In this document: positions 16,096-61,280 of the stretch, in pieces
How the letters are laid out: every line of letters starts with the position of its first letter
Numbering within the stretch: the stretch's first letter is position 1
Source of the DNA: Escherichia coli
GTDB lineage: Bacteria > Pseudomonadota > Gammaproteobacteria > Enterobacterales > Enterobacteriaceae
Assembly: GCA_002099625.1 (NCBI GenBank)
Contig: GCA_002099625.1_4857.1
Length of the DNA: 64,000 bases
Direction: 5' to 3' (one strand)
The notes under the pieces: model-generated
The model's input: only the letters and a program-made list of their open reading frames with translations
What the model was told of the DNA's origin: nothing
Databases searched by the model: none
Translations under genes and position numbers: made by a program

Positions 16096-16152
16096 GAGTA
16101 TGATCCTTAGTATGACCATCAGGTCTTTAAGACGAATATATGGAGACGTTCC

Positions 16153-19094: not shown

Positions 19095-19133
19095 TACCTC
19101 TCTCCATTTGGAGAGAGGTACGTTTTATTTTTT
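19095..19133. terminator. Bidirectional rho-independent terminator
   Basis: Hairpin tacctctctcca-ttt-ggagagaggta followed by T-run 19123-19133 on plus; A-run 19081-19087 serves the convergent minus-strand gene. Confidence 0.6.
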
Positions 19134-19926: not shown

Positions 19927-20414
19927 TATTCGTCGTCTTCGTCTTCTTCATCGGTTGCCATCATGGACTTGGCAAACTCTTTACGCAGCTTGCCTTCCAA
20001 CGCTTTAGACTTTGGAGAACCGAAACCGTAAGAGATGGACGCTGCCCATTCTTTCTGAGTTGGGTTTTCAGTAACCGGGCGAGAGAACACGGTAGAGAAT
20101 GCTGCGTTACCGATATCCAGCGTTAAGTCCAGTGCACCGATATCGCTATCCGCTTTCGCACGGTCAGCAATCAGACCACCGGCAACGCCACCGAACAGTT
20201 CAGTGAAGTTTGCGTCGTGCTGTCGCAGAGCGTCCGCGTCTTCCAGTGTGAAGCGATAGTCCACATCCCCAACTTTCGTTACGGGGAGTGTTTCTTCGTA
20301 AATCTTAACCAGCGGGTCGGCGTTCAGCGCCAGGTCTTCGGACAGGGTTGCTGCCGGCGTGTCCAGTTCAGCGATCAGTTTGTGCAGTGCTTTCATTGAA
20401 GTTACTTCAGCCAT
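19926..20414 (-). CDS. Hypothetical acidic protein (162 aa, C-terminal DEEDEDDE)
   Basis: AAGGAA ribosome-binding site before ATG at 20414; strongly acidic tail. Confidence 0.6.
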   Translation of the reverse strand: MAEVTSMKALHKLIAELDTPAATLSEDLALNADPLVKIYEETLPVTKVGDVDYRFTLEDADALRQHDANFTELFGGVAGGLIADRAKADSDIGALDLTLDIGNAAFSTVFSRPVTENPTQKEWAASISYGFGSPKSKALEGKLRKEFAKSMMATDEEDEDDE

Positions 20415-22008: not shown

Positions 22009-22022
22009 TAATGGTCGATTAA
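22009..22022 (-). promoter_or_regulatory. Leader motif TTAATCGACCATTA, copy 2
   Basis: Minus-strand leader ttaatcgaccattacccagaaggagtatttaca-ATG, 20 nt upstream of the ATG at 21989. Confidence 0.4.
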
Positions 22023-22045: not shown

Positions 22046-22064
22046 TAAGTAATATATATCTCAG
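22046..22064. promoter_or_regulatory. Copy 2 of recurring near-palindromic motif (taagtaatatatatctcag)
   Basis: Intergenic, about 55 bp upstream of the minus-strand gene start at 21989. Confidence 0.45.
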
Positions 22065-22737: not shown

Positions 22738-23037
22738 TTACATCTGCTTTATTGCCATATTCGAACGATACGGCTCAGTGAGTAGAAAGTAAGTACGGCG
22801 ATAGTCGATTGTCACTCCGGCCTCTTTAATGTCGCAATAGAGCGCCATGATATCTAGCGACGCGATTCCGGAGATAATGTTATTAACCTTGCGTTTTGTA
22901 TCAAAACGTTCCGATAAGATTTCGGCAAGCACTTCCTTACCAGCCTTTCCTTGGATGGCGTAGATCGCTAACGCTTTCAGTTCTTCCGGCGTCAAACAAC
23001 GAAGGGTCGGAGGTATTGCGATGTTAACGACCTTCAT
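22738..23037 (-). CDS. Hypothetical protein (about 100 aa)
   Basis: ORF 22738..23082; ATG at 23037 or GTG at 23082, not resolved. Confidence 0.45.
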   Translation of the reverse strand: MKVVNIAIPPTLRCLTPEELKALAIYAIQGKAGKEVLAEILSERFDTKRKVNNIISGIASLDIMALYCDIKEAGVTIDYRRTYFLLTEPYRSNMAIKQM

Positions 23038-23092
23038 GCGTCCCCCTACTGTAGTGGTTTTTAGTTGTGATTTGCAGACCACGAACTAGGCA

Positions 23093-27143: not shown

Positions 27144-30100
27144 TTAGTTGATTTTAGCCGGCAAGGCTGGGACGTCTTCACCATCTAAGATGCGTCCGAT
27201 ATTCTCCCCACCACGATACCCGACAGCGTTGGTGGTTCCGATGCGCATGATAGAACCTACGATACGTGCGTCGACGGAATCACGACCAAAGATAATGTCG
27301 AGTTCCTGCCCGTCTTCCGTTTTGTTGGTTCCATACATCACTTCCTGAACCGTCGTTTTCAGCTGGTTAGCAATAACCATCTTATCCGCTGCTGCCATCT
27401 CTACCCGGTGTGTGATGTAGAATCGGACACACAGGCTATTGTACGCTAACGGCACCCCCTCAACACGAAAATCACCGTTGACTCGACCATCCTTCGGCTC
27501 GTCACGTTTGAGAGCCAGCGCAGTCTTCCGACGTATACGGTCGTATTTACGAACCATCTCCGCCAAAGACGGGGTCATATCTTCCACCTCGCCGTGGTAA
27601 ACCACTTCGATTTTGTCGATAAACCCACGAACACCAGAGCGTGGTGCAAAGGAGCTTAACTCACGCAGCGTTTCCGCTGCTTCTTTACTGAACCCGCTCA
27701 TATCGCCGGTCAGGTTGTCGGTGAAGGTGCATAGAATTGAATCCACGTCTACGTGGTCCCCTTCTTTTACCATCTCCAACAGGTTCTGGGTAAACGTCAT
27801 TGTGACTTCTTTGAGTTTGGTAACATCGGCTTCAGCCTTAGCAGCGAACCGCTCACTAATGGCGTTGGAGTCCTCAATTACTTCTTCCCCTTCAATCAAA
27901 GCGACAGTTGCCAGTATCCCGTTTTTAAAGCTGACTTGCGTTGGATCGTAGATGTCTGGTTCAAAGTGTTGTTCGTTGTACGTGATAACGGCACCGGCAG
28001 GGAGTTTATCTCCGCGCTTCCATTTCGTTACCAGGGTGTGTGGGTAGTAAGTCCCTTCGTGCGGACCGAACCAACGGCCCAGTGGGAAAGCTTCTTCCTC
28101 TCCGTCGTCGTATTTGATTTTAACGTGGTCGTTAAGAACCTCCACAATCTTGCCAGGTTTATCGATTACGCGTGCGTGCTTCACAGAAGTACGGTGTGCC
28201 ACGAACTTTTCTTGCTCGGTACGATACGGTGTGGTGGTTGCGCCAACACAACTGGTCGCAGAACCGAATTGAATCCCAACGAAGTTCTGACGCTTAGCAT
28301 CGTCCATCAGGGTATCCGGCACCAAGCCATCAATAAACGACAGTGCCTCACCTGGCTTCAGTTTATCGAGGTCCTTTTTAAAGGTCGTGCCGTCCACGGT
28401 GTCGTAACGCGGATTGTTTGTTGCAAAGGCGGTGATACCTACATCGCCGTTATCGACCGTGTTACCGGAGACAATCCCCAGGTCGCTCGGTTGGAATTCA
28501 CGGGTACTGTAGACCATGGTCTTGCGGTTACGACCACCTGTACCGCCCATGGTAACAACATCTTTTTCTTTGATGTTCTGTACCGGGTTTGCGCCAGGAG
28601 CCAGCAGAACAGACGGGTCGGAGTTAATTGCACCCCACACCATGTCCTGCGTCAACTCAAACTTACGATTCGAGTTAGGCGCGTTGTTGTAGTTACGCAT
28701 CGCCCGCACCATCGCGGTGTAGATGTGATACGAAATACGTTGGTTCCCGATGAACATCATTTCGTCACCGTTAATTTCCGGTAACGTGTGGTCCGTCTGC
28801 AGCAGTTCGTTAGAACGCTCCAGTAAGCCGATAAAGGTTTCCGGCTCGCCCATTTTCCTGAGGATACGCGCGTGCATGTCGTCAACAAATGCGGTCCGCA
28901 TCAGTTTCAGCTCTTTGATGTAGCGTGGTGTTAGCCCATCTGCATCGCGTAACAGGTTCAGGTAAATGTCTTCCCGGTCAACTTCCGACTCGGTATACGT
29001 GGTAAAATGTTTAATGTAACGGTCTAAGCCGTTGACAATCATCCTCTGTTGATCGTTCTCGCAGACAATTGCAATTTTCGCATCCTGGAGACGAATAATG
29101 GAGTCGAACTGACTTTTATCGATACGTTGTCCGACAGAGAGAACCTCGTAACTGATACCAAAGTGTTTCAACATCCCGGTTAACCCGAGATAGTACGCAA
29201 ACACAAAGCCCAGCGAGATTGATTTGCCCATCAGTGACAGTTCGGTCATTTCACGTGGAGCCTTAGAGGTGTCCACGCCAAAGACTTCGGCGAGCGTACC
29301 CAGTGGTTCGGTCTTATCCTTATCCACTCGATAGAGCTGGGAGTTTTTATCCATACCGACGATGACATGACTCCGCGGTTTCTTCGCCACAGGTACCAGC
29401 TCGACACGGTCCGCGTCTGCCAGTTGCCCTTCGTTAAAGAATGCCGCTTTCTGTTTAATGTCAAAGTTCCATTGGTACCCAATTGCGTTGAACGCTGCTA
29501 CACGACGTGCCACCTCGGTGTACTGACGCGGCAGTTTAGACAGCGGATCGAACACATTCGCCAGTTTTGCATCAGTAATTTCGGTGTTCTTCGGATCGAC
29601 CGCGCGAGTAATAATCGCATTAGTGAGCCAACGTCCGTAATCATTGACGACTTTATCACTGCGACGGACAAAGTTCTTCCCGTAGGCAGTGGTTAACGCT
29701 ACGGTATCGTGGGACACTTTACGGATAGGAAGATCAACACGCTGACGACGCATTGTATATTCCACACCATTTGCAACCCAAGTACCGTCTTCGGTTAATG
29801 CAGGAATTGAAAAACGTACCGTGGTTGGTTCTCCGCCAATCGGCTGAATACGCAACGTGTGGTGTTCGATATTCCCGGTAACGGAAATCTCTTTCTCAAC
29901 AGTGTGATTGTGAATCGCCAAACCGAGACGCTGAGATGACGCTACTGCCCCCAGAATATCTTTCGGGAAGATTTCTTGGTTGTACTGACGAATGATTTGG
30001 TCGGTGGTATTTTCCGCCCAGGCTTCATCCGTAACTAAGCGTTCAATCTTCTTAGGCTCGGCTTTAACTTCGAGTTTCTTCGGATCGATGGTCAGACCTT

Positions 30101-31349
30101 CGCCGTACGTCTCTTTAGGATTGTACGGGTTGGGTAAGTTTACGAAACGTTTAGAAGATTCGTTCAGAAACTGATACGCTTTGGCGGTGACGCGGCCCGC
30201 TTCTGCCAGGCGCTCAACTTCCTGTTTAATCACAGCATCGTGTGGGATGGTGCGTTCTACGACGATGGTGGTTGGTTTGACATCTTCTTTCGGCGCTTCG
30301 ATGACCAGATCTTCTTTCTCATCGAACTCATGATCGTTCAATGTATCGTCAACGTTGTCGCTTTGTGTTGCTTCATCGTCGACGATATCGAGGCTTTCTT
30401 CCGGTTTACTGGCAACGGTTTCAACAGCATCGTCGTCCTCTCCCAGATGTACGCGTTCATCCCCTTCCGGTGTAACGAACTCGTCATCTTCGTAGTCGGT
30501 AGACGGCGGTGTGGTCATCACCGTAGTCAGTGTACGGTAGAACATTCTGCCCATCTGCACGTCAGTCAAACGACCACCGGCAGACTTACGCATTCTTTCA
30601 ATTACACCCATGTTCATGGATGTAAAACCACCGTTGTGTGTGAAGATAAAGTTCACACGAGACAGCTGGTTCATGTCCATACCGTCGAACAGGGTTGCTT
30701 GCTGATCGCCGTAAGCCCAACCGAACAGTTCCAGTAACCACAGCAGGTTAAAGTCTTTAAAGTGTTCCAGTTTGGTTTTAACACGATCGTTATACGTCAT
30801 TTTAAAACGATCAAAAGAAGGCAGTACGTTACCCAGTTCGATGATGTAGTAGTTCTGACGCATGTACTCACGTGAGTCAGTTTTCATCTGGTTAGTTATC
30901 AGCAGCTGAATGTTGTGCAGACGTTCGTACCAGGACATTAAAGTATCTGGGTAGAAATAATGCGGCAGCATCGGAGTGTAGTTTTCGATGAGCAGCACTT
31001 TCGGATCGGAACGTACCACGCCGTCTTCAATCATGCGACGAATACGACGGTTGTTACGATGGTACTGGAAGATTTGGCGCTCTTGACCAACAACCGGTTT
31101 CTTACGCGGGTGGCCAATAATGCCGTCTTCAGGCAGCTGGAAGTGGTGACGAATCATCGCCGGTTTTTCCAGCTGACCAAAACATGGTGTGGTTAACGGT
31201 GGTGCTAAAACCACCTGGTCTAAATCGATGGTGTGGTAGATAGAACCACGTGGGAGCTGGAGCTTCTCCAGCGGGATAATACGCGGACGACCGAACTCAT
31301 CGGTCTTGCGCACGGTAAAGCGCTGGTTAAACTGTTTCAGAAAAATCAT
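27144..31349 (-). CDS. Multisubunit RNA polymerase beta-like subunit (1401 aa)
   Basis: C-terminal region IEGEEVIEDSNAISERF resembles the bacterial beta-subunit active-site segment (NFEDAIxxSE); lies directly downstream of the beta-prime-like gene; assignment from eye-matched motifs only. Confidence 0.5.
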   Translation of the reverse strand: MIFLKQFNQRFTVRKTDEFGRPRIIPLEKLQLPRGSIYHTIDLDQVVLAPPLTTPCFGQLEKPAMIRHHFQLPEDGIIGHPRKKPVVGQERQIFQYHRNNRRIRRMIEDGVVRSDPKVLLIENYTPMLPHYFYPDTLMSWYERLHNIQLLITNQMKTDSREYMRQNYYIIELGNVLPSFDRFKMTYNDRVKTKLEHFKDFNLLWLLELFGWAYGDQQATLFDGMDMNQLSRVNFIFTHNGGFTSMNMGVIERMRKSAGGRLTDVQMGRMFYRTLTTVMTTPPSTDYEDDEFVTPEGDERVHLGEDDDAVETVASKPEESLDIVDDEATQSDNVDDTLNDHEFDEKEDLVIEAPKEDVKPTTIVVERTIPHDAVIKQEVERLAEAGRVTAKAYQFLNESSKRFVNLPNPYNPKETYGEGLTIDPKKLEVKAEPKKIERLVTDEAWAENTTDQIIRQYNQEIFPKDILGAVASSQRLGLAIHNHTVEKEISVTGNIEHHTLRIQPIGGEPTTVRFSIPALTEDGTWVANGVEYTMRRQRVDLPIRKVSHDTVALTTAYGKNFVRRSDKVVNDYGRWLTNAIITRAVDPKNTEITDAKLANVFDPLSKLPRQYTEVARRVAAFNAIGYQWNFDIKQKAAFFNEGQLADADRVELVPVAKKPRSHVIVGMDKNSQLYRVDKDKTEPLGTLAEVFGVDTSKAPREMTELSLMGKSISLGFVFAYYLGLTGMLKHFGISYEVLSVGQRIDKSQFDSIIRLQDAKIAIVCENDQQRMIVNGLDRYIKHFTTYTESEVDREDIYLNLLRDADGLTPRYIKELKLMRTAFVDDMHARILRKMGEPETFIGLLERSNELLQTDHTLPEINGDEMMFIGNQRISYHIYTAMVRAMRNYNNAPNSNRKFELTQDMVWGAINSDPSVLLAPGANPVQNIKEKDVVTMGGTGGRNRKTMVYSTREFQPSDLGIVSGNTVDNGDVGITAFATNNPRYDTVDGTTFKKDLDKLKPGEALSFIDGLVPDTLMDDAKRQNFVGIQFGSATSCVGATTTPYRTEQEKFVAHRTSVKHARVIDKPGKIVEVLNDHVKIKYDDGEEEAFPLGRWFGPHEGTYYPHTLVTKWKRGDKLPAGAVITYNEQHFEPDIYDPTQVSFKNGILATVALIEGEEVIEDSNAISERFAAKAEADVTKLKEVTMTFTQNLLEMVKEGDHVDVDSILCTFTDNLTGDMSGFSKEAAETLRELSSFAPRSGVRGFIDKIEVVYHGEVEDMTPSLAEMVRKYDRIRRKTALALKRDEPKDGRVNGDFRVEGVPLAYNSLCVRFYITHRVEMAAADKMVIANQLKTTVQEVMYGTNKTEDGQELDIIFGRDSVDARIVGSIMRIGTTNAVGYRGGENIGRILDGEDVPALPAKIN

Positions 31350-31367
31350 ACATGTGCCTTATGGGTA

Positions 31368-32981
31368 TCATTTCAACAGCGCAGCAGTCGTTCTTTTAAT
31401 CACGTTGTTAACCGGATTGATTTTGAAACTGCCGTCTGTTGCAAACCAGTAGTTTTTCGAACTGACCCACTTCCGATTTTCCTCGAGCGCTTCGGTTGAC
31501 ATCGGGCAGTTTGCTGAGCCGGTGTCACCATCGTAGTCACCACCCAAGCCCCCTAATCGGGATGGGTGTGGTGCCATGGATTCCACAAAGGTTTTCACGG
31601 TACGGTCAGGGAAACTAATTGCACCCTTCTCTTTTAACGTGACCCAATCGTCTTCCAGTTCATGCAAATAGAGGGAAGAAGTGGTGGTCTCCAATCTTAT
31701 GGTCGAGGAGTAAGTCGAACCGCGTCCCGTAACCGGATAACGCGTGATGAACGAGAAGTAGTCATTCCAAATATCGTAACCTGACAAATAGAGGAGTTCC
31801 GCTAAGCTCAGTCCGCGGACAAGCTTACGGTCACGTCCTTCCGGCAGGTCTTCAATATCGTAAAAGATTTTGAAGCTGCGTTTGTCCTGGTAGATTAATG
31901 CCACGTAATGGTCCGGATCAATCATCAGCGGTTTATGTCGAAGCTCGCGCGCTTCCATTCTGTTGATGAGTGTTTCGATGCCATCGTCGGTAGTGAAAAG
32001 GTCATACACCCGCCCGGAGACTTCCAGGAACTCACGCTTGAGTGTTTTGGTGTTAACGCCGTATAAGTTGCCGTCCCCTGCCCGGATGTTACTGAGGTAA
32101 CGTTCACGGATGTGGTATTGAGCCACAGGCAGTAATGCCTTCAGGGTTTGGTACAAACCGATACGGGTATCCGTTGGACGAATCGCATCTTCGCGACCCA
32201 TGACCTTGGAACCGGTTGAGAATGAAGACAGTACGTTACGCGTACCGTTCATTAACTTACGTGACGTCACTTTACGACGTGCAAAACCACCTTTACCGTC
32301 TTGGATGTTGAAGAAGTACATCCAGATATCATTAAAGGTTTGTTGGAGCTTCCAGCGAACCGGGTCAGTCAGTTCCGTTCGCGTACTGCGGTCGGGGATT
32401 GCACGTGCCAGAGAAATCAGACGGCGGTAGAGTCCGCCAATCTCTTCTTCTTGGTCGCGGCCATCCTGACGAATGACCAAATCACGTAATCCCGCAGGCA
32501 GAACCAGCACATAGCGGCTGAGACTGACCGGACGGAACTTATTGAAGAAATCGACTGTCTCGTCGCGACGCATCGATTCGTTGCGTCCCGGTGTCAGTTG
32601 TTCGTAGTAGCGTAGGAAGAAGTTGAAGCCGGTGTCTGCACCTTTATCACTGGGCAGAGCCGGCTCGAAGTCTTTTTCTTTCTCATTCCAGATAGCGAAT
32701 CGCTTCCCGGAACAGATTTCTTCGTACAGCTGTTTCAGCTGGAACAATGCCAAACAAACGGTCGGCGAAATGATATCCAGTTTGATATCAATGTACGAGA
32801 ACGTTGAGTCTCGTGCTTCGCTCCCTGTGAGGCCAAAAATTTCGGTTGAATACAGTCCTTCAGGGTGAAAGTTTTTCGTCAGTCCCTGAAAGGTGTCTGT
32901 TGTTGTAACTGGTTTTAAATGCGACACCAGGGACTTGTTGACGTTTAACAAGTAAAAGTCAACCCAGTTTAGCTTTCTCAC
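31368..32981 (-). CDS. Multisubunit RNA polymerase beta-prime N-terminal-like subunit (537 aa)
   Basis: GGDYDGDTG about 465 residues in, matching the position of the beta-prime catalytic NADFDGD motif; N-terminal PEGLYSTEIFG resembles beta-prime RDGLFCARIFGP; GTG start with AGGAG ribosome-binding site. Confidence 0.6.
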   Translation of the reverse strand: MRKLNWVDFYLLNVNKSLVSHLKPVTTTDTFQGLTKNFHPEGLYSTEIFGLTGSEARDSTFSYIDIKLDIISPTVCLALFQLKQLYEEICSGKRFAIWNEKEKDFEPALPSDKGADTGFNFFLRYYEQLTPGRNESMRRDETVDFFNKFRPVSLSRYVLVLPAGLRDLVIRQDGRDQEEEIGGLYRRLISLARAIPDRSTRTELTDPVRWKLQQTFNDIWMYFFNIQDGKGGFARRKVTSRKLMNGTRNVLSSFSTGSKVMGREDAIRPTDTRIGLYQTLKALLPVAQYHIRERYLSNIRAGDGNLYGVNTKTLKREFLEVSGRVYDLFTTDDGIETLINRMEARELRHKPLMIDPDHYVALIYQDKRSFKIFYDIEDLPEGRDRKLVRGLSLAELLYLSGYDIWNDYFSFITRYPVTGRGSTYSSTIRLETTTSSLYLHELEDDWVTLKEKGAISFPDRTVKTFVESMAPHPSRLGGLGGDYDGDTGSANCPMSTEALEENRKWVSSKNYWFATDGSFKINPVNNVIKRTTAALLK

Positions 32982-33010
32982 TTTTAAGCTCCTGAATTGG
33001 AAGAAACATT

Positions 33011-36000
33011 ATGGCAAAAAGAGGCAAAGACGGTTTCGATGATATCGATTTAGATAGACTCGACGACTGGGATGATTTCGGTGAACCACCCCGTCCCAAA
33101 GACGAGAAAAAACGAAGCCCGATACTCAGTACCCTGAATGTTGCCAGGAAGTCGGCGTTGTCAACTATCTGGCCAGAAGGGAAACGCGACCAAGTTATCC
33201 TCAAGGGGATGCCTAAGCCGGCAGCTGATGCATACGAGGGCTATCAGTCAGCGGCAGCTGCAGCAAAGGACATTTACGCCCATACGAAAGGGGAGCTTGA
33301 GAAGACCGAGCGCACGCTGAAGATGCAAGCGCGTCAACTCGGTCCGACAATGAAGAAATACTTGCCGGATGCAGTTACTAAACGCTTCGACAAGTGGTCA
33401 AAATCTGACCAGTTAGATTACCAGAACTACGATCCGAATCAGGCATTGATGGATCGTGAACTGGGCGACGTATTCTCAGGTGTGCCAAAGGACGCCGATG
33501 AGCAACGTCAGCTGCAGGATCGCATGGTAGAGGACAAGCTCCGTGACAGCATCAAAGAGATGCGCGCGGATGCAATGCACCAAACCATGATTGGGATGGC
33601 GAAAGATATTAACCTGTTAACCGGGTTAAGCCGTGGGGTATTCTTAAACATCGAGCGTAAGAAGCTCGAATTGCAATACCGCACCCTGTTCGCCATTCAA
33701 GACATCGTGAAGATGAAGCAGTCGGAGTTCGATCGTAACACGCCTGCTTTAGAAGCCATCGTGAAGAACACGGCACTGCCGGATTACGCGAAGGAAGATT
33801 TCTCAGAAGTCCGTTGGGCGAACGTTAAACGCCAGGCTGCGGAATGGATGAACCCGTTGCGTTATGCTGACGGGTTTATGGACATGATTCGCGAAAATAC
33901 CAAGAAGAAAATTTCTGGTATATTTGGCGAAGGTCGTGGTTTGTTAGAGTCCGTTCTCGGCATGGGTGTTGAAGACGATTTCGGCATGAGCGATAGCTCT
34001 TCGTTGACTGCCGAACGTCGCAAAACAAATGCTCGCGATAAAGCAACTGCATGGGGTAGCGGATTCCTTGCGAAGAAACTACTCGGCCCACAAATCGAGA
34101 AACTCCAGAAATGGACTCGTGAGGAGATGGAGAAAAATCCAGAGGTCATGAAACGCCTGCAGAAGGGCGCGTTCACCTTTGGTAATCTTTCCTCTATCTC
34201 GAACTCAGCTATCGCAGGCGAAACGCAAGGACCGTTGGCGGATTTGTTCCGGGTATTGAATGAACTCGGTATTGTCCAACCGTTAAACCGCGAGAAAGCT
34301 TTTCTTGATGAGCGTAATGGCGAAACGTTAAGCCGTTCGGCGAAGTTTGACCGCAAAGCGTATCTTAGCATAGTTGAAGTTATTCCTGCCTGGCTGGCAG
34401 AGATTAACAAATCTGTTCGTCGTGGCTATGGCGAACATGCCGACCTGGAATATGACATCACCAGCCGTGGTTTCGTAGACCGCAAAGTGGTCGGTAATCG
34501 TGTACGAAAAGCGGTTGCAAATGATGAGCAGCGTCTGCGTCTTCAGAATTCCATTAATAGCACTGTGGATTTTGTTGACCGCGGCAAAACACTCTCGCAG
34601 AAGGATCGTCAGCATCTTGCCGACTATATTGAGTCGCGTGCCTCGCAGGGCCGTGCATTCGACGTAGAAGCAATTTTGAAAGACCCGATGCATCTTCATC
34701 GGTATATGCCAGGAAACTCTGCAGAACGCATTAAGGAAGCGTTACAGGGGCATTCTGATAGCCTGGTCGGTGGTAGCAACGAATTAAGTAACGAACTGGC
34801 TCGCAAAATCTCCACAGTGCAGTCATCTATCACCCAACGTCAGGCAATTATCGACGAGGCGGTGAATATTTACGGCGAGCGAGCGTTGCGTGATGCGGGT
34901 ATCTTTAACTACGACGCGAAGAGTGACACCTTCGGCGTGGATAAAGACCTGTCCGATCCCTATACCTTGTTTAATGACTTGGCGATGGGTAAGACACGCA
35001 GCGGGCGTGCATTGACTCGTGACCAGGAGATTCAACGTAAGCTGCAAAATGGTTCGGCGTTAGGCGACTATCTGCGCCGAATGAACCAAGGGGCAAGTGG
35101 TGGTGCCGATGACACGTCGTTACCGCCGGCTTTACGTGGCGGTGGTAAAGGCCGCGGAATGTCGCCTCGGCAGCTAGCCGCGGTTCTCTACGGTGAAACC
35201 TCGACTAACTTTGTTGAATTGTTGAGTCAACGTAACCGTGGCGAAGAAGCGCCACGGAATAACTTTGACGGTATCATCGAAGCGATTCGGGGTAACAACA
35301 ACAGTGACACCCTCCAGAAAATTCTGGAACACGTCAGAAGCATGGACGAAGAAGGGGTTCTCCTGGCTTCGTTAGCAGGGGGTGCTGGTTCTGGCGATGA
35401 AGAAATGGGCCCGCCTCGCCCTGGCGGTGGTAGCGGTGGCGGTAAACGCCGTCGTATTATCATCGGTGAGGATGGGCTTATTCGTCGTTGGGGTGGTGTG
35501 TTGTTCGACACCGCAACAGGAATCGGCGGCTTTGCAAAACGTGGTGTTAAGGGTGCCTGGAATAAACTGAACCAGTTCGGTGGCTGGGCACGCGGTAAAG
35601 TCGCAGGAATGGGTGGCGGAGAAGGTCCTGGTTTCTTAACCCGGATGCGTGGCCTTATTAGTGGTAGTGTCCGTGGGGGCTTTGAAGCAGTAAGCTCTTT
35701 CGGTAAAGGACTACTGGGTATCCGCGACATTTACGATGACCACGGTAATGTTGTTCTGCAGGGCGCACGCCTGGAAGCTGGGGAATACTACCAGGTTATT
35801 GATGGTAAGATGGTTCAGTTGAAAACACTGGACGACATCAAGCTGGGGAGCGACATTGTTGACTCCGCAGGTAATCTGGTATTAGCGGCCGCTGACTTAG
35901 CCGCTGCGGGTAAACTCCGCTACTATAAAGGCGGGAAAATCCAAGCACTGACCCAAGGTCTGGCCAGTAAGATTGGTTTAGGCTTTAATAAGGTGGCTAA

Positions 36001-39000
36001 GCTACCGAAAAGGTTCCTGGATTTCCTGTCACCAAAAGCGGGCAGCATCGTTGGTAAGATTAAGGACTGGCTGAACGAGATTCCGGAAGGCGAAGAAAAG
36101 ACACGTCTCCAGAAAGCGTTCAACCGTGTAACGAGCTTACCGGGTAAAGTGCTCGGTTTTGCGAAACGTGGTGTCGATCGTCTGAAAGACATGATTACCG
36201 ACAACCCACTGACGCGTTGGTGGAAAGGCCGTAAAGATGGTGGGGGTGGTGGTTTCAGTCTCTTCTCATCAACCGGCAAGAAAACCAACCACATCCTTAT
36301 CCGTATCTATAAACTGTTGAACCAACGTTTACCGGGAGATCCGGAAGACGAAAGTTGGACAGAGGAAATGGAGAAGGGCGTCGGGGGTGGCGGTAGTACG
36401 ATCGGTCGTGCAGTACGCGGGGCGTATGATCGTGCGAAAGCGTCATTGTCTGAACGTTTTGGTGGACGTTGGTCAAGAACAAAAGCGTTCTTTGGTCGTG
36501 GACGTGACCGCCTGCGTGGTTGGTTCAGTGGTTTCCGAGGCCGGGCTGGGGATATGCTCGATGGATATCGTGGAGCACGACACGACATTGCTACACGTTA
36601 CGAAGTTGAACGTCGGTTGGCTGGACGCGATGACGATGTTGCTGAGTTTTATCGCAGCCATTTGAACGCGAAAGGTGGCCTTTCTGGCCGTAAAGTCTAC
36701 GGCGATGCGAAGGAAGACCTTGAGACCGCACGTGATGCAGCAGGGAGGGTTATTAACAAAGGGAAGAATGCTGCCAAGTCTGCAGGTGCAAGGTTATTCG
36801 AACGCTTGGACCGAATGATTGGCTTGCAAGAGATGTCGTGGTTTAACACCATGCGCGAATCAGTATCCCGTGCAGGTGGTGACGATGGCATTATTCGCAC
36901 CATGTTTGCGAAGTTCGGTAAACGTAACAAGCCGCCTGAAGGTGATGAAAAACGCGACTACTTTAACTTCTTCAAACGTTGGCGTGAGAAACGTAAGGAG
37001 AAGAAAGAGAAAGCGCAGGGCTCCAAAGGGAAATCTGGCGGTCTGTGGGATATGGTGAAAGGCTTACCTATCATCGGCCCCATCGTCAGTATCTTGGGAA
37101 CTGTGGGTAATATACTCGGTTCTATCACGAAATGGGGGGTGTTAAAACCCGTAGGTCTTTTAGGTAAGGCTGCGTGGAACGTTGGTAAGTTCGCAGTAAC
37201 CCGTTTGGCGGCACCCGCGGTGTCCGCTGTGGCAACTGCGGCATCTGCCGTCGTGACAGCAGTGGGCTGGCCGGCAATTCTTATCGGTGGCGCGATCGCT
37301 GCGGCAGGTTACGCCGCGTACAAGATCGCAACGACTACCTATACCCAGTACCTGGATAAGATGCGTTTAGCTCAGTACGGTTTCCGTGATTACGATAAGT
37401 GGTCGTCGGACGACGGGGCGAAGGCGCGTTACTTAGAAGACGCATTGCGTGAGTATGTGTCTTACGCGGAAGATGGCCAAGCCAGTCTCCGCGGACTAAG
37501 TGGAAAAGACGTTCAGAAGTTAGCTGAAGGGTTCGGTATCAACGTTGAGGAAAAAGGCGAGATGTTGGCCTTCCAAGCGTTTATGCTTCAGCGCTTCATT
37601 CCGATTTATCTCCGCTGGATTACGGCACTGAAATCGATGCCGAACAGTATCCAGTTGGCTGACGTCGGCGATGCGAAGAAAGTATCGAAAGAGGACATGC
37701 AGACACTCTTCAACAAAATGAAGATGACTAAGGATGCAAAAGCGTTCTCTTCGTTAACTGACCCACGCAAAGTCAACCAAGGTTTCTTCTCGAAAGCTTG
37801 GGACGTTGTAACCTTTACACCGAAGGAGTTTTTGAGCGGTGAAGAGGTTATGGAAGTGCAGAATGAAGTTGAGCGTGCAATCAAGTTCAGAATGGACGAT
37901 AAGAAAGCACGTAAGTACGGAATGGCACCGGCTGTAGAGGGGATTAAGTCCGCGGGCGTTGATGAAGCTATCAACAAACTTGGACAGTTGGATAACGAAC
38001 GTAATAAAAATCTGGCGAAGGTAGAGGGTTGGGAAGACGGAACAGAGCAGGTTCAGATTCAGGTAGACTGGAATGCGGTGCTCGACCAGAAAGACATGAA
38101 TGCGATGGAGTCGGTACGTTGGAAGACTTATGGTTTTACCACCATCGACAACGCCACACGCACGTTGATTACGGTATTCGAGAAAAACGTCATCAAAGAC
38201 ATTGACGTGAAAACCGCAAGCTACAAAGGTGATTGGAAGAAAGCAATCGCCTCAATGGTTCCAGACGCTATCGGCACACCGAAAGAAGATCGTTTGAAGC
38301 GGTGGTTCTTTGACCGTTTCTTACCGGTATTCATGACGTACTTGGTTGGGGTGAAACGCTACCTGCCAACAGCTGATCCGCTGAACTTGAAACTGACCGG
38401 CGGTTACCTGTACGAAATCAGTTTGATGATGTCAACAGCTTATAGCTTGAAGGGCGGTATAAGACAGTCGGTGTGGGAAGTGAATATCAACCCATTAGGG
38501 GGCGATGCTAACACTAATCCGTCGTCTATCAAAGCCGAGCTGGAAACGCTGAAGCTGTTATCAAAAGAAGCTGACCTTGCCGTGCGTAACATGATTAAAG
38601 CCATTAAAAATAATGGCAAGCGTGCACGCTGGAAGGATCGTAACAAGAACCGCAGTTCTCTGGAAGTCACCGGTGAAGATGAAGAAGACTCGAACATCAG
38701 TTCGGGAGATTCTTTGTCATCTGACGGTGCTCGCGCCTCAGGCTACATTCCATCGGGCACGAGTGGCGGTGTGCCGGGTAACTTAGGTCAAGTCGTCGAT
38801 GCGGTTGGTGGTGTGCGGAACTACGCTGCAATGACCACTGGTTCGTCGTCGATTAACCTGAGTGATGTGAAAGACGGTGATTATAAGTCACTGGCTGAAA
38901 AATACCCGATAGAAATGTTGGGTAGAAAGGGTGCGTTGAACGTTCCGAATATCAAAGCATTGATTACCGATGCAGCGAACATGATGGGCGTGCCACCTGC

Positions 39001-40132
39001 AGTGGCGTTAGCAATGGCTAAGGCGGAGTCCGGATTTAACTACACCGCTAAAAACCCGTATGCTTCGGCGTCTGGGTTGTTCCAGTTTGTTAACGGCACG
39101 TGGGACGGGATGATGAAGGGGTATTCGCGGAAGTTTGGTATTCCGCGTGTTAACCAAATGGACCCGTGGGCGAATGCTATACTGGGTGTACAGTTCATTC
39201 GTGACAACATCCAACAAGCACAACGTGACCTGGGTGGTAAAGCACCACCTCCAGCCGTGGCTTATCTGTACCACTTCCTAGGTGCAGGCGGCGGTAAGAA
39301 ATTCCTGGAAGCGTGGAAGCGTAATCCGAATATGGCGGCATCGAGTGCTCCTGGGATTACATCCGCAATATTGAGAGGGAATGCCAACGTCTTCTACAGC
39401 AACGGTCGTATACGTAGCGTAGATGGGGTTATTCAGGAACTGAACCGCCGCATGGGTGCAATTTCCGCCAACGAAGTCGCTGCCGATCCGAGCAAGACGA
39501 AGGATATGGTTGCAGGATTGTCGCCTAATTCACCAACCAACCCGGCAGCGGCAATGGGTGCACCGGCCGCTAATGACCCGAGTCTGTCGCCAGCAGATAA
39601 CCTGCCAGCAGATAATGCTAATCGTCGTGATGACGCATTGACGCAGAAAGGGGCCATGGCGGCACAAGATGCAATGGCTACCGCCGCAGGTAATGTAGGA
39701 CCAGCAGCACCTACACCAACCACAGGCGGTACCGGAACATCCGATGCCTCAACAACGGCCGAAACCGTAGCGTCGCAAGCTGCAGCAGAAGGATTGTCTG
39801 CGACGGATGTTGCTAAAGTGAAAGCAGGCGCGGAAGCGCAGGTTAACGCAGCAGCTCGTCCAGTTGCCGCTCCAACTTCTGATGCTACAGCATCGACGCC
39901 AACGCTGAATGGTGACCCGATAGATGTTCAGCAGCTCAAGGTACTGATTCAGTCTCGCGATTACTTGAAAGAGATTCGTGATATTTTGAAATCAAATCCA
40001 AGAGCGGCAAACGACACACGGGGTGGTAGTATCCAGCAAGCGGCAAATGTGCCTCCTCCTGGCTCAGCTGCACGTAGGCAGGAAATAACCCAACCGACAC
40101 CGTCGTTAAACGTAAGTCGGAAAGCAAGCTAA
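33011..40132 (+). CDS. Giant virion protein (2373 aa) with TM segments and a lytic transglycosylase domain
   Basis: Lytic transglycosylase motif AKAESGFNYTAKNPYASASGLFQFVNGTW (about nt 39000-39130); hydrophobic cluster around nt 37060-37340; Gly/Arg-rich repeats; Ala/Pro/Thr-rich C-terminus; architecture like phiKZ gp181 or T7 gp16. Confidence 0.8.
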   Translation: MAKRGKDGFDDIDLDRLDDWDDFGEPPRPKDEKKRSPILSTLNVARKSALSTIWPEGKRDQVILKGMPKPAADAYEGYQSAAAAAKDIYAHTKGELEKTERTLKMQARQLGPTMKKYLPDAVTKRFDKWSKSDQLDYQNYDPNQALMDRELGDVFSGVPKDADEQRQLQDRMVEDKLRDSIKEMRADAMHQTMIGMAKDINLLTGLSRGVFLNIERKKLELQYRTLFAIQDIVKMKQSEFDRNTPALEAIVKNTALPDYAKEDFSEVRWANVKRQAAEWMNPLRYADGFMDMIRENTKKKISGIFGEGRGLLESVLGMGVEDDFGMSDSSSLTAERRKTNARDKATAWGSGFLAKKLLGPQIEKLQKWTREEMEKNPEVMKRLQKGAFTFGNLSSISNSAIAGETQGPLADLFRVLNELGIVQPLNREKAFLDERNGETLSRSAKFDRKAYLSIVEVIPAWLAEINKSVRRGYGEHADLEYDITSRGFVDRKVVGNRVRKAVANDEQRLRLQNSINSTVDFVDRGKTLSQKDRQHLADYIESRASQGRAFDVEAILKDPMHLHRYMPGNSAERIKEALQGHSDSLVGGSNELSNELARKISTVQSSITQRQAIIDEAVNIYGERALRDAGIFNYDAKSDTFGVDKDLSDPYTLFNDLAMGKTRSGRALTRDQEIQRKLQNGSALGDYLRRMNQGASGGADDTSLPPALRGGGKGRGMSPRQLAAVLYGETSTNFVELLSQRNRGEEAPRNNFDGIIEAIRGNNNSDTLQKILEHVRSMDEEGVLLASLAGGAGSGDEEMGPPRPGGGSGGGKRRRIIIGEDGLIRRWGGVLFDTATGIGGFAKRGVKGAWNKLNQFGGWARGKVAGMGGGEGPGFLTRMRGLISGSVRGGFEAVSSFGKGLLGIRDIYDDHGNVVLQGARLEAGEYYQVIDGKMVQLKTLDDIKLGSDIVDSAGNLVLAAADLAAAGKLRYYKGGKIQALTQGLASKIGLGFNKVAKLPKRFLDFLSPKAGSIVGKIKDWLNEIPEGEEKTRLQKAFNRVTSLPGKVLGFAKRGVDRLKDMITDNPLTRWWKGRKDGGGGGFSLFSSTGKKTNHILIRIYKLLNQRLPGDPEDESWTEEMEKGVGGGGSTIGRAVRGAYDRAKASLSERFGGRWSRTKAFFGRGRDRLRGWFSGFRGRAGDMLDGYRGARHDIATRYEVERRLAGRDDDVAEFYRSHLNAKGGLSGRKVYGDAKEDLETARDAAGRVINKGKNAAKSAGARLFERLDRMIGLQEMSWFNTMRESVSRAGGDDGIIRTMFAKFGKRNKPPEGDEKRDYFNFFKRWREKRKEKKEKAQGSKGKSGGLWDMVKGLPIIGPIVSILGTVGNILGSITKWGVLKPVGLLGKAAWNVGKFAVTRLAAPAVSAVATAASAVVTAVGWPAILIGGAIAAAGYAAYKIATTTYTQYLDKMRLAQYGFRDYDKWSSDDGAKARYLEDALREYVSYAEDGQASLRGLSGKDVQKLAEGFGINVEEKGEMLAFQAFMLQRFIPIYLRWITALKSMPNSIQLADVGDAKKVSKEDMQTLFNKMKMTKDAKAFSSLTDPRKVNQGFFSKAWDVVTFTPKEFLSGEEVMEVQNEVERAIKFRMDDKKARKYGMAPAVEGIKSAGVDEAINKLGQLDNERNKNLAKVEGWEDGTEQVQIQVDWNAVLDQKDMNAMESVRWKTYGFTTIDNATRTLITVFEKNVIKDIDVKTASYKGDWKKAIASMVPDAIGTPKEDRLKRWFFDRFLPVFMTYLVGVKRYLPTADPLNLKLTGGYLYEISLMMSTAYSLKGGIRQSVWEVNINPLGGDANTNPSSIKAELETLKLLSKEADLAVRNMIKAIKNNGKRARWKDRNKNRSSLEVTGEDEEDSNISSGDSLSSDGARASGYIPSGTSGGVPGNLGQVVDAVGGVRNYAAMTTGSSSINLSDVKDGDYKSLAEKYPIEMLGRKGALNVPNIKALITDAANMMGVPPAVALAMAKAESGFNYTAKNPYASASGLFQFVNGTWDGMMKGYSRKFGIPRVNQMDPWANAILGVQFIRDNIQQAQRDLGGKAPPPAVAYLYHFLGAGGGKKFLEAWKRNPNMAASSAPGITSAILRGNANVFYSNGRIRSVDGVIQELNRRMGAISANEVAADPSKTKDMVAGLSPNSPTNPAAAMGAPAANDPSLSPADNLPADNANRRDDALTQKGAMAAQDAMATAAGNVGPAAPTPTTGGTGTSDASTTAETVASQAAAEGLSATDVAKVKAGAEAQVNAAARPVAAPTSDATASTPTLNGDPIDVQQLKVLIQSRDYLKEIRDILKSNPRAANDTRGGSIQQAANVPPPGSAARRQEITQPTPSLNVSRKAS

Positions 40133-40135
40133 TCG

Positions 40136-40157
40136 TAGGGGGTGGCAACACCCCCTA
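40136..40157 (+). other. GC hairpin with GCAA tetraloop right after the giant gene stop, no U-tract
   Basis: tagggggtg-gcaa-cacccccta, 9-bp stem. Confidence 0.4.
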
Positions 40158-40180
40158 ATCATCTTACAGAGAGGTTTTAC

Positions 40181-42403
40181 GTGGAAGCAAGACAACTAAA
40201 AGATTCAGGATGGGTAACCGGCCTGTTTGGCGGTACAACCGCACAGCGCGATGAGCGCTTCCTGGGTTTGCGTCGTTACTCTAACGCGATGCTCTCGTTT
40301 GAAGATACCACGATGGGTGGTTCGCAAGCGTTAAATGCGCCGCCGCAGTTTACGATGTTTGCTGATCCGAGTTCAACAGGTGCCTTTGCACAACCTGATG
40401 CGGGTCGTGGCTCGTACTCAAAGTACGTTAAAGGTCAAGACCAACGTGGTTCCTATCGTCTAGGGACTTTCTATTACGAAGCTATTAACCAAAACAGTTT
40501 TTATCTTCATTGTCGTTTCGGTAAACCCCGATATATCGGGGTCGCTGCATTCTTCGCGAATATGTACGATTCCAACCTAGCGTATCTGGCGCGCACAGGT
40601 GACTACCCAGGTATGTTACGTGCGATGGGGACGTATGTTGCCGCCGCAGCAATATGGGCTGCAGTAGGTACGGTTGCCTTTGCGGTTATTCTGATTACGC
40701 CACGTATGTTGAAGATGGTGCTGAACAAGCAGACTTCTCGCTACTACTACGTGAAACCGACAATGCATTTGTATCTGCGCGCTGTGCAGAATATGGTCAA
40801 TACCCAGTTAGTTTATCGCCGATTGGTACCAACGGGTGTGTTAGGGACTTTCCAGCTTGCTAATGCTGTAGATGGGTCTGAGAAAGGCGGTACTGCTAAT
40901 AAGTACAACGGCGACCGTAAAGAGTGGTATTCCATGCTGCCAGAAATCTGGACAGCTGATGGTGAGTTCGATATCTATCGAATGATTAACCGCTACCAAA
41001 CATTAGCCAACTACCAGGCGAAAACCATCGATAAAATTCGTAAAGAGTCGAGTAACGAAGAGGACATGGCTCGTCGTTTGCGAAACTTCTATCTGGAAGC
41101 GACGTACTCAACAACCCATTTGGAGAAAGCTGCGCAGTACGAGGTTTCTTTACGTAACCTTGAATACGTAGCCAAAGCCGGTAAAGGGTACGATGCTGGT
41201 TTTGAAAACGTCGATAACAAAGAAGACGAACTGGTAGCAGGGATGAACGGAAGCATTCAGGATGCTCAGTCACAAGGAGGTAAAGCTGAAAACTTCGAAA
41301 ACGAAGGTGATGCGCAACGTAAAGAGCTTGCCGAGCGTATGGCACAGGTTGAAAAGAACCAGGCTCAGGTTGCTAAAAGTCAGACCGAAGCAAACTCAAT
41401 GGATGAGAATAATCTCGACATTGGGAAGATTGAAAACTGGATGGACCAAGGCCAGAAAGAATCTGTCGGTAGCGTCTTCAAAGACTATATCGATATTTTA
41501 GAAGGCGCTATGGATGGGTTAACTTCGAACATCGCTTCGGAGATACGCAATGGTTCGCAGTGGATTACTTGGCGTGTTGATGGACGTGATACCGTAGGGC
41601 GTTCGTTCTCCAACACCACCAAAGAACCTGAAATCTCTGGCACGGTTAACTCCGCCACACAGAAAGCACGTTCTTTGGAAGTAAACCTCTCTGGTGGTAA
41701 GACTGGTTTCGACGCAGTCGATGGTCTCATTACTGGGTTGAAGTCCGCCTTTACAGGCGCACTCGATTTCTTGCATTTATCAGGGATTATGTCGCTGTAC
41801 AACTCGTCAGTGATTGACTTCCCGGAAGTGTGGGACTCCTCAGACACCTCAGGTGACGATATCTCGCTAAGCATTCCCCTTCGCTGTTGGTCGGGTAACG
41901 ACTTAGATGTGTTCCAGGATCTGATTGTCCCGTTGTCGTTCTGGTTAGCGGCAGTTTGCCCGTTAGCAACCGGTAAACAATCGTTTACGCACCCGTTCTA
42001 TCTGGAGTGTTATTCTCGTGGTCGTTATTCCATGCGTAATGCCATGGTAACTAACTTGAGTCTCCAGTTTGGTACAGGTGGGTTAGGGTGGCGTGCTGAC
42101 GGTCTGCCGTTGTCGTGTGATATACAGGTAACTATTCGTGACCTGTCACGCGTTATGTACATGCCGATTGTAACCGATATTGGTGTGTTTGATGATGATA
42201 ACAAGTTCAGTGAATTTATGTCTGTGTTGGGTGCTGCCACGCTTTACGAGCGTACCAACGGTATCGCGCAGGCTAAAATCAACGCGTCTATCTGGGCGCA
42301 GAACTGGGCAAGTGCCTGGTCACAGGGCAGCATCGTCAACGCCGCGTTAGATATCATACCGGCACGACAAATCGCGAACATTTTCCTACCACAAGCGCGA
42401 TAG
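40181..42403 (+). CDS. Hypothetical protein, likely virion-associated (about 740 aa)
   Basis: ORF 40142..42403; GTG at 40181 has GAGAGG ribosome-binding site (40142 GTG is the alternative); internal hydrophobic segment GTYVAAAAIWAAVGTVAFAVILI. Confidence 0.6.
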   Translation: MEARQLKDSGWVTGLFGGTTAQRDERFLGLRRYSNAMLSFEDTTMGGSQALNAPPQFTMFADPSSTGAFAQPDAGRGSYSKYVKGQDQRGSYRLGTFYYEAINQNSFYLHCRFGKPRYIGVAAFFANMYDSNLAYLARTGDYPGMLRAMGTYVAAAAIWAAVGTVAFAVILITPRMLKMVLNKQTSRYYYVKPTMHLYLRAVQNMVNTQLVYRRLVPTGVLGTFQLANAVDGSEKGGTANKYNGDRKEWYSMLPEIWTADGEFDIYRMINRYQTLANYQAKTIDKIRKESSNEEDMARRLRNFYLEATYSTTHLEKAAQYEVSLRNLEYVAKAGKGYDAGFENVDNKEDELVAGMNGSIQDAQSQGGKAENFENEGDAQRKELAERMAQVEKNQAQVAKSQTEANSMDENNLDIGKIENWMDQGQKESVGSVFKDYIDILEGAMDGLTSNIASEIRNGSQWITWRVDGRDTVGRSFSNTTKEPEISGTVNSATQKARSLEVNLSGGKTGFDAVDGLITGLKSAFTGALDFLHLSGIMSLYNSSVIDFPEVWDSSDTSGDDISLSIPLRCWSGNDLDVFQDLIVPLSFWLAAVCPLATGKQSFTHPFYLECYSRGRYSMRNAMVTNLSLQFGTGGLGWRADGLPLSCDIQVTIRDLSRVMYMPIVTDIGVFDDDNKFSEFMSVLGAATLYERTNGIAQAKINASIWAQNWASAWSQGSIVNAALDIIPARQIANIFLPQAR

Positions 42404-42425
42404 TACACCACAGAGGTAGCGCATT

Positions 42426-42977
42426 ATGAGTTTATTTGGAAAGACCGCAAAAGAGTTGGTTTACGATCTTATCGTGTCCCAGAATCCCGGACTGACTGGC
42501 AAGGGCGTGACCATCGATAAATTGTCGTTCGGTAACCCGTCGCACATCACCGCATCCGATCCTGACCCAGAACAGTACACCAGACTGAACACCAGTCTCG
42601 ATGTTTCTGGTATCGTTGAGAAAGGTACGTTTGGTAAGATGGGTCTTACTTACCGTCGACTGGACGTAGCTCACCTGTTTGAAAACGTGGTGCTGTCTGT
42701 GGACGGTAGTAGCGCCAATACAGCCGCCGACCTCGTTCCGTTGTTACAGGCCAAGTACAATTGGTTGATTGATGCGAGCGAGATTTATGCGACGGAGTCA
42801 ATGACGTCTTCCACGAAACACAATTTGCGTTTCAATGGAAAGTCACTGGCGTGGACGGGTACGGTTGAAGTTTATTTGACCGAAGTTCCGAGCGATGGTG
42901 TCGATATCAGTAAACTGATCACCGTTACCGAGTTGAACGGTCTGGTTTATGACATCTCTGACATGACTCAAGCGTAA
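42426..42977 (+). CDS. Hypothetical protein (183 aa)
   Basis: GAGGTAG ribosome-binding site; last gene of the plus-strand block before a terminator. Confidence 0.6.
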   Translation: MSLFGKTAKELVYDLIVSQNPGLTGKGVTIDKLSFGNPSHITASDPDPEQYTRLNTSLDVSGIVEKGTFGKMGLTYRRLDVAHLFENVVLSVDGSSANTAADLVPLLQAKYNWLIDASEIYATESMTSSTKHNLRFNGKSLAWTGTVEVYLTEVPSDGVDISKLITVTELNGLVYDISDMTQA

Positions 42978-42994
42978 CAAAAAAATAAGTAATG

Positions 42995-43032
42995 CGAGTA
43001 CCCCTAACGGGGTACTCGTTTGCTTTATTTTT
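42995..43032. terminator. Bidirectional rho-independent terminator
   Basis: Hairpin cgagtacccc-taac-ggggtactcg with T-run 43019-43032 and upstream A-run; between convergent genes. Confidence 0.6.
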
Positions 43033-53697: not shown

Positions 53698-53716
53698 TAG
53701 ATAATATCTGTCTGAG
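53698..53716. promoter_or_regulatory. Copy 3 of recurring near-palindromic motif (tagataatatctgtctgag)
   Basis: In a 76-bp divergent intergenic region between the minus gene start at 53664 and the plus gene start at 53741. Confidence 0.5.
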
Positions 53717-57678: not shown

Positions 57679-57776
57679 CAGATGTTACCTTTTTGCAGTT
57701 CTCGTACATAAGGTTTGGGTGATACGTAAAAGACTTACTATGTAGCCCAATCCCTTATATATTCGAGGTTGATAGA

Positions 57777-61261: not shown

Positions 61262-61280
61262 TAGATAATATCTATCTCAG
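61262..61280. promoter_or_regulatory. Copy 4 of recurring near-palindromic motif (tagataatatctatctcag)
   Basis: Intergenic between minus-strand genes, upstream of the start at 61228. Confidence 0.5.

Follow-up and report, generated by a model that had tools for sequence, protein, structure and literature searches.

Divergent gene starts and their probable promoters in phiKZ-like phages

Overlapping divergent promoters are known from bacteria and phages as arrangements in which two transcription units start within one RNA polymerase footprint, with the potential for mutual exclusion and for complementary 5′ leaders. Such promoters elsewhere rest on sigma-70 −10/−35 elements, whereas the junction considered here is without these and is expected to be read by a phage polymerase. 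The junction lies in a stretch of 64,000 nucleotides (the window, contig GCA_002099625.1_4857.1 of the assembly GCA_002099625.1, filed under Escherichia coli), where a virion RNA polymerase beta-prime gene beginning with GTG at 32981 on the minus strand and a giant tail protein gene beginning with ATG at 33011 on the plus strand stand head-to-head across a spacer of 29 bp (32982-33010; TTTTAAGCTCCTGAATTGGAAGAAACATT). We favor, with somewhat better than even confidence, the reading that this junction is the shared start of two divergent transcription units whose promoters overlap face to face and which carry an additional constraint on the first ∼15 codons of each gene.

The closest described transcription system is that of phage phiKZ, in which the only sequence-specific element of the late promoter is T(−3)ATG(+1), four base pairs at the transcription start accompanied by undefined flanks, and in which sequence downstream of the start is also required (PMC4666361). 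The phiKZ middle promoters contain a weak AAanTTACc near −24 (PMC4666361; PMC7598289). The non-virion RNA polymerase of phiKZ reads the 4 bp through its beta-like subunit and holds the DNA to about −30 through the backbone only (PMC12809450), and by analogy a footprint of this extent would alone cover the partner's start at the window junction. Transcription in phiKZ-like phages is independent of the host (PMC7598289). The lack of a sigma-70-like site at the junction fits this independence, since host-type −35/−10 pairs (16-18 bp spacing, either strand) gave a single match in 31000-35000, at 34347, a count below the shuffle expectation.

Two phiKZ junctions can be compared directly with the window. 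The gp180/gp181 pair of phiKZ (NC_004629.1, 189259-189333) is orthologous to the pair at 32981/33011, is likewise arranged head-to-head, and has the same neighbors (the beta gene and the gp182 family), but in phiKZ 75 bp separate the two genes and the G of a canonical TATG stands 31 nt ahead of the gp181 ATG, whereas the window spacer of 29 bp has no such TATG for either gene. The phiKZ gp28/gp29 (sheath) junction is orthologous to a second head-to-head junction of the window, at 16096-16152, and three transcription starts have been mapped there (P009, P010, and P011). It differs from the window in its 128-bp spacer, and its proximal starts at 20123 (minus) and 20273 (plus) stand 150 bp from each other, without overlap; the sheath start P010 is 1 nt 3′ of a TATG. 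In addition, ONT-cappable-seq places P011 at 21311 (minus), in antisense orientation 1.1 kb inside the sheath gene with a transcript that covers gp28, and P097 inside the 3′ end of gp181. P011 provides an experimental precedent for a promoter inside a divergent partner gene. The gp28 start P009 (NC_004629.1, 20123) falls within the gp28 coding sequence as annotated, 84 nt from its beginning; either the gene start has been placed too far upstream or the full protein is not encoded by this transcript.

Gene starts and conservation of the head-to-head layout

The region 31000-35000 matches Salmonella phage MET_P1_082_240 at 98.7% and SPN3US at 96.7%, and the window is a Seoulvirus jumbo phage of the SPN3US type. 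The minus-strand gene (31368-32981, 537 amino acids) is the homologue of SPN3US gp240, with 99.8% identity in its product, a GDYDGD catalytic motif in the translation, and a match to PHROG 2986 "RNA polymerase beta subunit" (E = 2.9e-238, residues 3-536 against profile positions 2-538). In the virion RNA polymerase, gp240 makes up the N-terminal portion of the beta-prime subunit (PMC5105663). A PDB sequence search with gp240 returned no match. The plus-strand gene (33011-40132, 2373 amino acids) is the homologue of SPN3US gp239 and the counterpart of phiKZ gp181; it matches PHROG 3201 "tail" and contains a Pfam SLT (lytic transglycosylase) domain near its C-terminus (residues 1984-2072), and its SPN3US homologue is named "tape measure protein (gp239)" by Thomas et al. 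(PMC5105663). These roles agree with the original prediction, which had called a beta-prime-like gene and a giant virion gene. The second gene of the minus block, at 27144-31349 (minus), is the homologue of gp241, the N-terminal subunit of virion RNA polymerase beta, and starts 18 nt after gp240.

Both start codons and the 29-bp distance between them, as first noted from the letters alone, are exact in the open reading frame (ORF) table and in the sequence. No earlier start is possible for either gene: the gp239 reading frame meets an in-frame TGA at 32993-32995, and that of gp240 meets an in-frame TAA, the reverse complement of 33009-33011. No other start codon lies between these stops and the two starts, and a spacer of less than 29 bp is thus impossible. 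The starts themselves are already known, as the public records of SPN3US and MET_P1_082_240 annotate them identically for both genes. They are also conserved, because the GTG start followed by V[RK]KLNWVD in gp240 and the MAKK start of gp239 are kept in nine diverged relatives (SPAsTU, pEa_SNUABM_29, phiEaH2, Wellington, Huxley, Caitlin, CR5, pEa_SNUABM_38, and SPN3US), with synonymous differences among them within these conserved first codons of both genes. Similarly, tblastn alignments with relatives that are 72-89% identical begin at residue 1.

The spacer had been described as holding both ribosome-binding sites, which is clear for one gene and weaker for the other. The Shine-Dalgarno sequence AGGAG of gp240 (32989-32993, minus) stands 7 nt ahead of the GTG, has a pairing energy of −6.6 kcal/mol with the anti-Shine-Dalgarno sequence (about the SPN3US median), and is kept in relatives. 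The Shine-Dalgarno-like GGAAG of gp239 (32999-33003, plus) stands 7 nt before the ATG and reaches only −3.3 kcal/mol, an energy found in the weakest 11% of SPN3US genes and equaled by 38% of random 20-mers. At this site GAATTGGAA is kept in all relatives but the CR5 type. Conservation in the left half of the spacer, AAGCTCCTGAATTGGAA, extends past the core ribosome-binding sites.

The layout is conserved far beyond the close relatives of the window. Measured from the conserved MAKK start, the spacer is 29 bp in the window, SPN3US, SPAsTU, pEa_SNUABM_29, phiEaH2, Huxley, and Caitlin, 32 bp in Wellington, and 23 bp in CR5 and pEa_SNUABM_38, which gives a range of 23-32 bp over five genera (Seoulvirus, Erskinevirus, Wellingtonvirus, Machinavirus, and Derbicusvirus). 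Farther relatives have spacers of 30 bp (N1M2), ∼30 bp (OBP), ∼25 bp (RisingSun), 42 bp (Ea35-70), and 75 bp (phiKZ), with those of OBP and RisingSun re-measured from the conserved starts MSR(N/K)PTNFTLLD and MSDDFDMD, respectively. Several records at this junction probably carry misplaced starts: the beta-prime gene of OBP is annotated ∼59 nt too late, the tail gene of RisingSun 22 codons too early, which produces a false 41-nt overlap, and the tail gene of Caitlin five codons too far upstream, which produces an annotated spacer of 14 bp. The head-to-head order of the giant tail lysin gene against beta-prime(N) followed by beta(N) recurs in 14 phages from at least 10 genera, phiKZ, OBP, N1M2, RisingSun, and Ea35-70 among them, and by its gene order the window locus shares this Chimalliviridae synteny of the tail lysin and virion RNA polymerase genes.

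The 17 divergent spacers in the SPN3US annotation measure 11, 14, 25, 29, 57, 63, 66, 67, 70, 72, 76, 98, 124, 163, 180, 206, and 280 bp (median 70), so that the 29-bp gap is the fourth shortest. The layout is real and conserved but is an ordinary outcome of tight packing in Chimalliviridae genomes. The three tighter junctions of SPN3US lie outside the window, at NC_027402.1 50882-50906 (25 bp), 69554-69567 (14 bp), and 80716-80726 (11 bp). The 25-bp junction holds a palindromic CTCCGGAG usable as a ribosome-binding site in both directions, and at the 14-bp junction the major capsid protein operon starts opposite a DnaB-like helicase gene.

Synonymous-site constraint, operon boundaries, and promoter motifs

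Synonymous variation was scored in 15-codon windows on codon alignments of nine phages, and in both genes it is suppressed at the very start. In codons 1-15 of gp240 (32937-32981, minus), which correspond to −74 to −30 upstream of the gp239 ATG, the synonymous difference falls to 0.24, compared with a median of 0.50 for the gene (0.4th percentile). Similarly, codons 1-15 of gp239 (33011-33055, plus), which correspond to −30 to −74 upstream of the gp240 GTG, show 0.33-0.34 against a median of 0.54-0.57 (0.1-0.2th percentile). The constraint is limited to ∼15 codons, and the gene average is regained by codon 16-20 in both gp239 and gp240. As a control, 50 kb from five relatives was divided into orthologue sets, giving 30 genes in 6 related genomes. 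The lowest first-window percentiles among these 30 genes belong to the tail sheath gene (0.1), gp239 (0.2), and gp240 (0.4), all of which stand at tight divergent junctions, whereas gp241, an internal operon gene, has a first-window percentile of 50.5 and no 5′ constraint. Genes at divergent junctions are more constrained in the first window than those in a co-directional arrangement (Mann-Whitney p = 0.007; ratio test p = 0.002), as are genes at junctions of <60 bp in comparison with the remaining genes (p = 0.0004). The pattern is consistent with regulatory information that may overlap the first ∼45 nt of gp239 and gp240.

No signal of RNA structure was found in the leaders at the junction, where folding gave z-scores of +0.47 (plus) and −0.29 (minus) and compensatory changes were seen in 0 of 22 predicted pairs; an inverted repeat TTGTTGA-CGT-TyAACAA at 32935-32951 was rejected as a leader structure on these same grounds. 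A small ORF across the spacer (32959-33204, minus, 81 amino acids) was also rejected as a conserved gene, since it is interrupted by stops in Huxley and Caitlin.

The two genes head long same-strand blocks, the plus block running over 33011-42977 (gp239 to gp237) and the minus block from 32981 down to 19125 (gp240, gp241, and onward). Each block ends at a terminator-like hairpin with an 11-bp stem. The plus block closes at the hairpin at 42994-43019, which has T-runs on both sides and would block minus-strand read-through to gp240, and the minus block closes at the hairpin at 19095-19120, which would block plus-strand read-through from the sheath operon to gp239. Both stand where genes converge, have perfect stems with A-runs and T-runs beside them, and are probably two-way terminators, a type that has been reported for phiKZ and 201phi2-1. 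Because read-through would have to cross a hairpin and then run 10-14 kb in antisense orientation, it is disfavored and promoters are needed at the junction; the promoters of both operons most likely lie at 32981/33011, confined to ∼100 bp.

A further hairpin, GGGGGTGGCAACACCCCC, lies within the plus block at 40138-40155, in the gap between the gp239 stop at 40132 and the GTG of a gp238-like gene at 40181. It is kept in six genera, with changes on both sides of the stem (e.g., GGGGGCAGCAATGCCCCC and GGGGGAGGGAAACCTCCCCC), and the homologous gp181/gp182 gap of phiKZ yields a 103-nt small RNA from the 5′ untranslated region. The ORF-table start of the gp238-like gene at 40142 is probably too far upstream, as relatives favor the GTG at 40181.

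A phiKZ-type late promoter signal is present in the SPN3US clade, as in phiKZ itself: TATG is enriched with its G peaking 21-40 nt before start codons and is kept in 23 of 26 orthologous upstream regions, compared with 9-64% for permuted 4-mers. The sheath gene at the second head-to-head junction is one of the genes so marked. The original prediction had pointed to a like arrangement at 16096-16152, and the two gene starts there (ATG at 16095, minus; ATG at 16153, plus) are indeed 57 bp apart, between a phiKZ gp28-like gene and the tail sheath gene (Pfam PhiKZ_VTX and phiKZ_gp29PR), though with a conserved promoter-like motif in the spacer. This motif, CCTTAGTATGACC at 16105-16117, is invariant in six genera and includes TATG at 16111-16114, the G of which is 39 nt before the sheath ATG. 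A phiKZ-type late promoter is thus predicted from sequence at 16096-16152 and not at 32981/33011, where the motif is absent from both strands, and if the late class were used at the latter junction it would have to take an unrecognizable form. Another divergent spacer of the window, the 98 bp at 57679-57776 (57678 minus / 57777 plus), has a conserved TATG for each gene with the G at −29 and −35, and the predicted starts are back to back and non-overlapping. Within coding sequences, TATG occurs SPN3US-wide at 2.8 per kb in the sense and 0.97 per kb in the antisense orientation.

Two AT-rich motif classes were also recovered SPN3US-wide, namely AGATAGATATTATCT and GATATATATTACyTAGGTGAG with AATCGACyATTA downstream. 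Early promoters of the virion RNA polymerase are characterized by an AT-rich motif of about 10 nt near −10, and motifs of this kind (AGATAGATATTATCT or GATATATATTAC) match the window on the minus strand at 88-96, 53700-53708, 61264-61272, and 22049-22060. The first three sites belong to an early-promoter-like class, (A)GATAGATATTATCT. The class GATATATATTACyTAGGTGAG, which resembles the phiKZ early TATATTAC motif, is followed ∼30 nt on by AATCGACyATTA just before the ribosome-binding site (22049-22060 and 22009-22020, minus).

Other candidates were rejected. The sequence GATATCATC at 33039-33047 (minus, inside gp239) has one mismatch to the early motif and lacks conservation in relatives. At the four tightest SPN3US junctions, the best shared 9-mer with up to two mismatches, TTTAACTAA, occurs in 7 of the 8 upstream sequences against a null maximum of 6 but is scattered from −11 to −77. 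CATACT proved to be the reverse complement of AGTATG of the opposite-strand gene. A leaderless gp239 mRNA from a TATG over the start codon (33010-13) was discounted because phiEaH2, Wellington, and Huxley have C or A in place of the T. Finally, TTCGTGGTCTGCA is a single-locus element and not a general promoter motif; at 23073-23085 (minus), ∼45 nt upstream of an ATG at 23037, its core is invariant in six genera including CR5, and it is the unique upstream element of its kind in the genome.

Readings of the junction and their biological meaning

The favored reading, that of overlapping face-to-face promoters, would have the virion RNA polymerase operon run leftward (gp240, gp241, and on to ∼19125) and the tail operon run rightward (gp239-gp237, to ∼42977), each from its own promoter at the junction and each read by a phage multisubunit RNA polymerase and not by the host enzyme. 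Because the gap is 29 bp and each ribosome-binding site stands beside its own start codon, each transcription start, together with the DNA covered by the polymerase, would reach into or across the translation start region of the partner. The promoters would consequently overlap face to face, the 5′ leaders would be complementary over at least part of their length, and in both genes the first ∼15 codons would carry constraint at the nucleotide level on top of coding. The junction resembles overlapping divergent promoters in that the gene starts are closer than one polymerase footprint and each gene has its translation signals, weak in the case of gp239. It had been proposed that the promoters must lie inside the partner's coding sequence unless both genes are read through from distant promoters. 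This reasoning is largely sound. The geometry and the synonymous constraint fit such an overlap, and distant read-through is disfavored by the terminator hairpins and by the 10-14 kb of antisense, but "must" is too strong a word for the sequence determinants, given that in phiKZ sequence-specific recognition of the late promoter is limited to 4 bp at the start.

Several observations weigh against overlapping promoters at the junction. No phiKZ-type TATG was found on the plus strand in 32001-33010, the nearest minus-strand TATG upstream of gp240 are at −250 and −300 (33231 and 33281), the early AT-rich motifs are absent near 32981/33011, and no significant motif is common to the sequences upstream of the eight genes at the four tightest SPN3US junctions. 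The 5′ synonymous constraint is specific to genes at divergent junctions, with the modest statistics of 30 genes in 6 related genomes, and it could stem from each gene's own translation start or, by analogy with phiKZ, from a downstream-of-start requirement of its own promoter. A literature search found no transcription start or in vitro data for SPN3US-like phages. Moreover, the phiKZ ONT-cappable-seq table has no start in 187788-195984 and hence none at gp180/gp181, although its authors report that transcripts of >5 kb were captured poorly, which can explain the missing starts.

Among the alternatives, an unlikely one is that both transcripts start inside the 29-bp spacer, back to back and with minimal leaders of 13-15 nt that open at the ribosome-binding sites themselves. 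A few base pairs at the start and downstream sequence would then give promoter specificity, so that nothing regulatory lies in the coding sequence of the partner. The phiKZ late promoter needs T(−3)ATG(+1) and downstream sequence only, its upstream contacts being non-specific, and the conservation of AAGCTCCTGAATTGGAA beyond the ribosome-binding sites and the explanation of the constraint by a downstream requirement in each gene's own first codons would both suit such an arrangement. However, as the gp240 Shine-Dalgarno sequence lies to the left of that of gp239, the leaders avoid overlap only if both starts fall in 32994-32998; the sole spacer TATG is the one overlapping the ATG, with its unconserved T; and predicted TATG starts elsewhere in the genome give leaders of 20-40 nt. 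Promoters deep inside the partner gene (>100 nt, for one or both units), which would produce long antisense leaders, are likewise improbable. P011, which serves phiKZ gp28 from deep within the sheath gene, shows that such promoters occur, and the distant minus-strand TATG at −250 and −300 could be used in this way for gp240, but the constraint in both genes is confined to the ∼15 codons beside the junction and the 1 kb upstream of gp239 is devoid of plus-strand TATG.

A reading without any local promoter, in which both genes are expressed by same-strand read-through from far promoters, is highly improbable. Although it agrees with the lack of a recognizable promoter motif at the junction and with the phiKZ table lacking a gp180/gp181 start, the nearest same-strand upstream genes are 10 kb (minus) and 14 kb (plus) away, past the hairpins and with only antisense coding between, and the weakness of ONT-cappable-seq for long transcripts can account for the phiKZ result. 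That one start codon is wrong and the true spacer longer, with room for ordinary promoters, is scarcely credible: GTG is a minority start (12 of 264 SPN3US genes), the gp239 ribosome-binding site is weak, and starts are misannotated at this junction in OBP, RisingSun, and Caitlin, but residues 1-15 of both proteins are conserved through synonymous changes in nine relatives, GTG and AGGAG are kept in all of them, the PHROG match begins at residue 3 and the tblastn matches at residue 1, and a further ATG in frame comes only at codon 67 of gp239 and, in gp240, well beyond codon 100.

If promoters do overlap at the junction, a more specific and rather doubtful proposal is that the ∼120-bp block 32937-33055 is a conserved region of two-way control, belonging to an undescribed phiKZ-like promoter class that uses neither TATG nor the AT-rich early motif, with two phage polymerases starting face to face and leaders complementary across both ribosome-binding sites. 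This might be a "middle" class serving the virion RNA polymerase genes. Were it true, transcription or translation of the RNA polymerase operon would exclude that of the tail operon and vice versa, or the two would be timed relative to each other.

In phiKZ-like phages the promoters of the middle and late classes, read by the non-virion RNA polymerase, are poorly defined, and reviews consider them not predictable from sequence. Short head-to-head spacing being ordinary in these genomes, the only mildly interesting aspect of the locus is that its promoters are confined to ∼100 bp, have no recognizable motif, and leave a clear synonymous-site footprint. The junction is in this respect a compact and strongly conserved test case, in which the promoters are expected within ∼100 bp, TATG is missing, and synonymous sites mark the nucleotides that matter. 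Very short spacers between divergent genes would become workable with promoters that need no particular upstream sequence.

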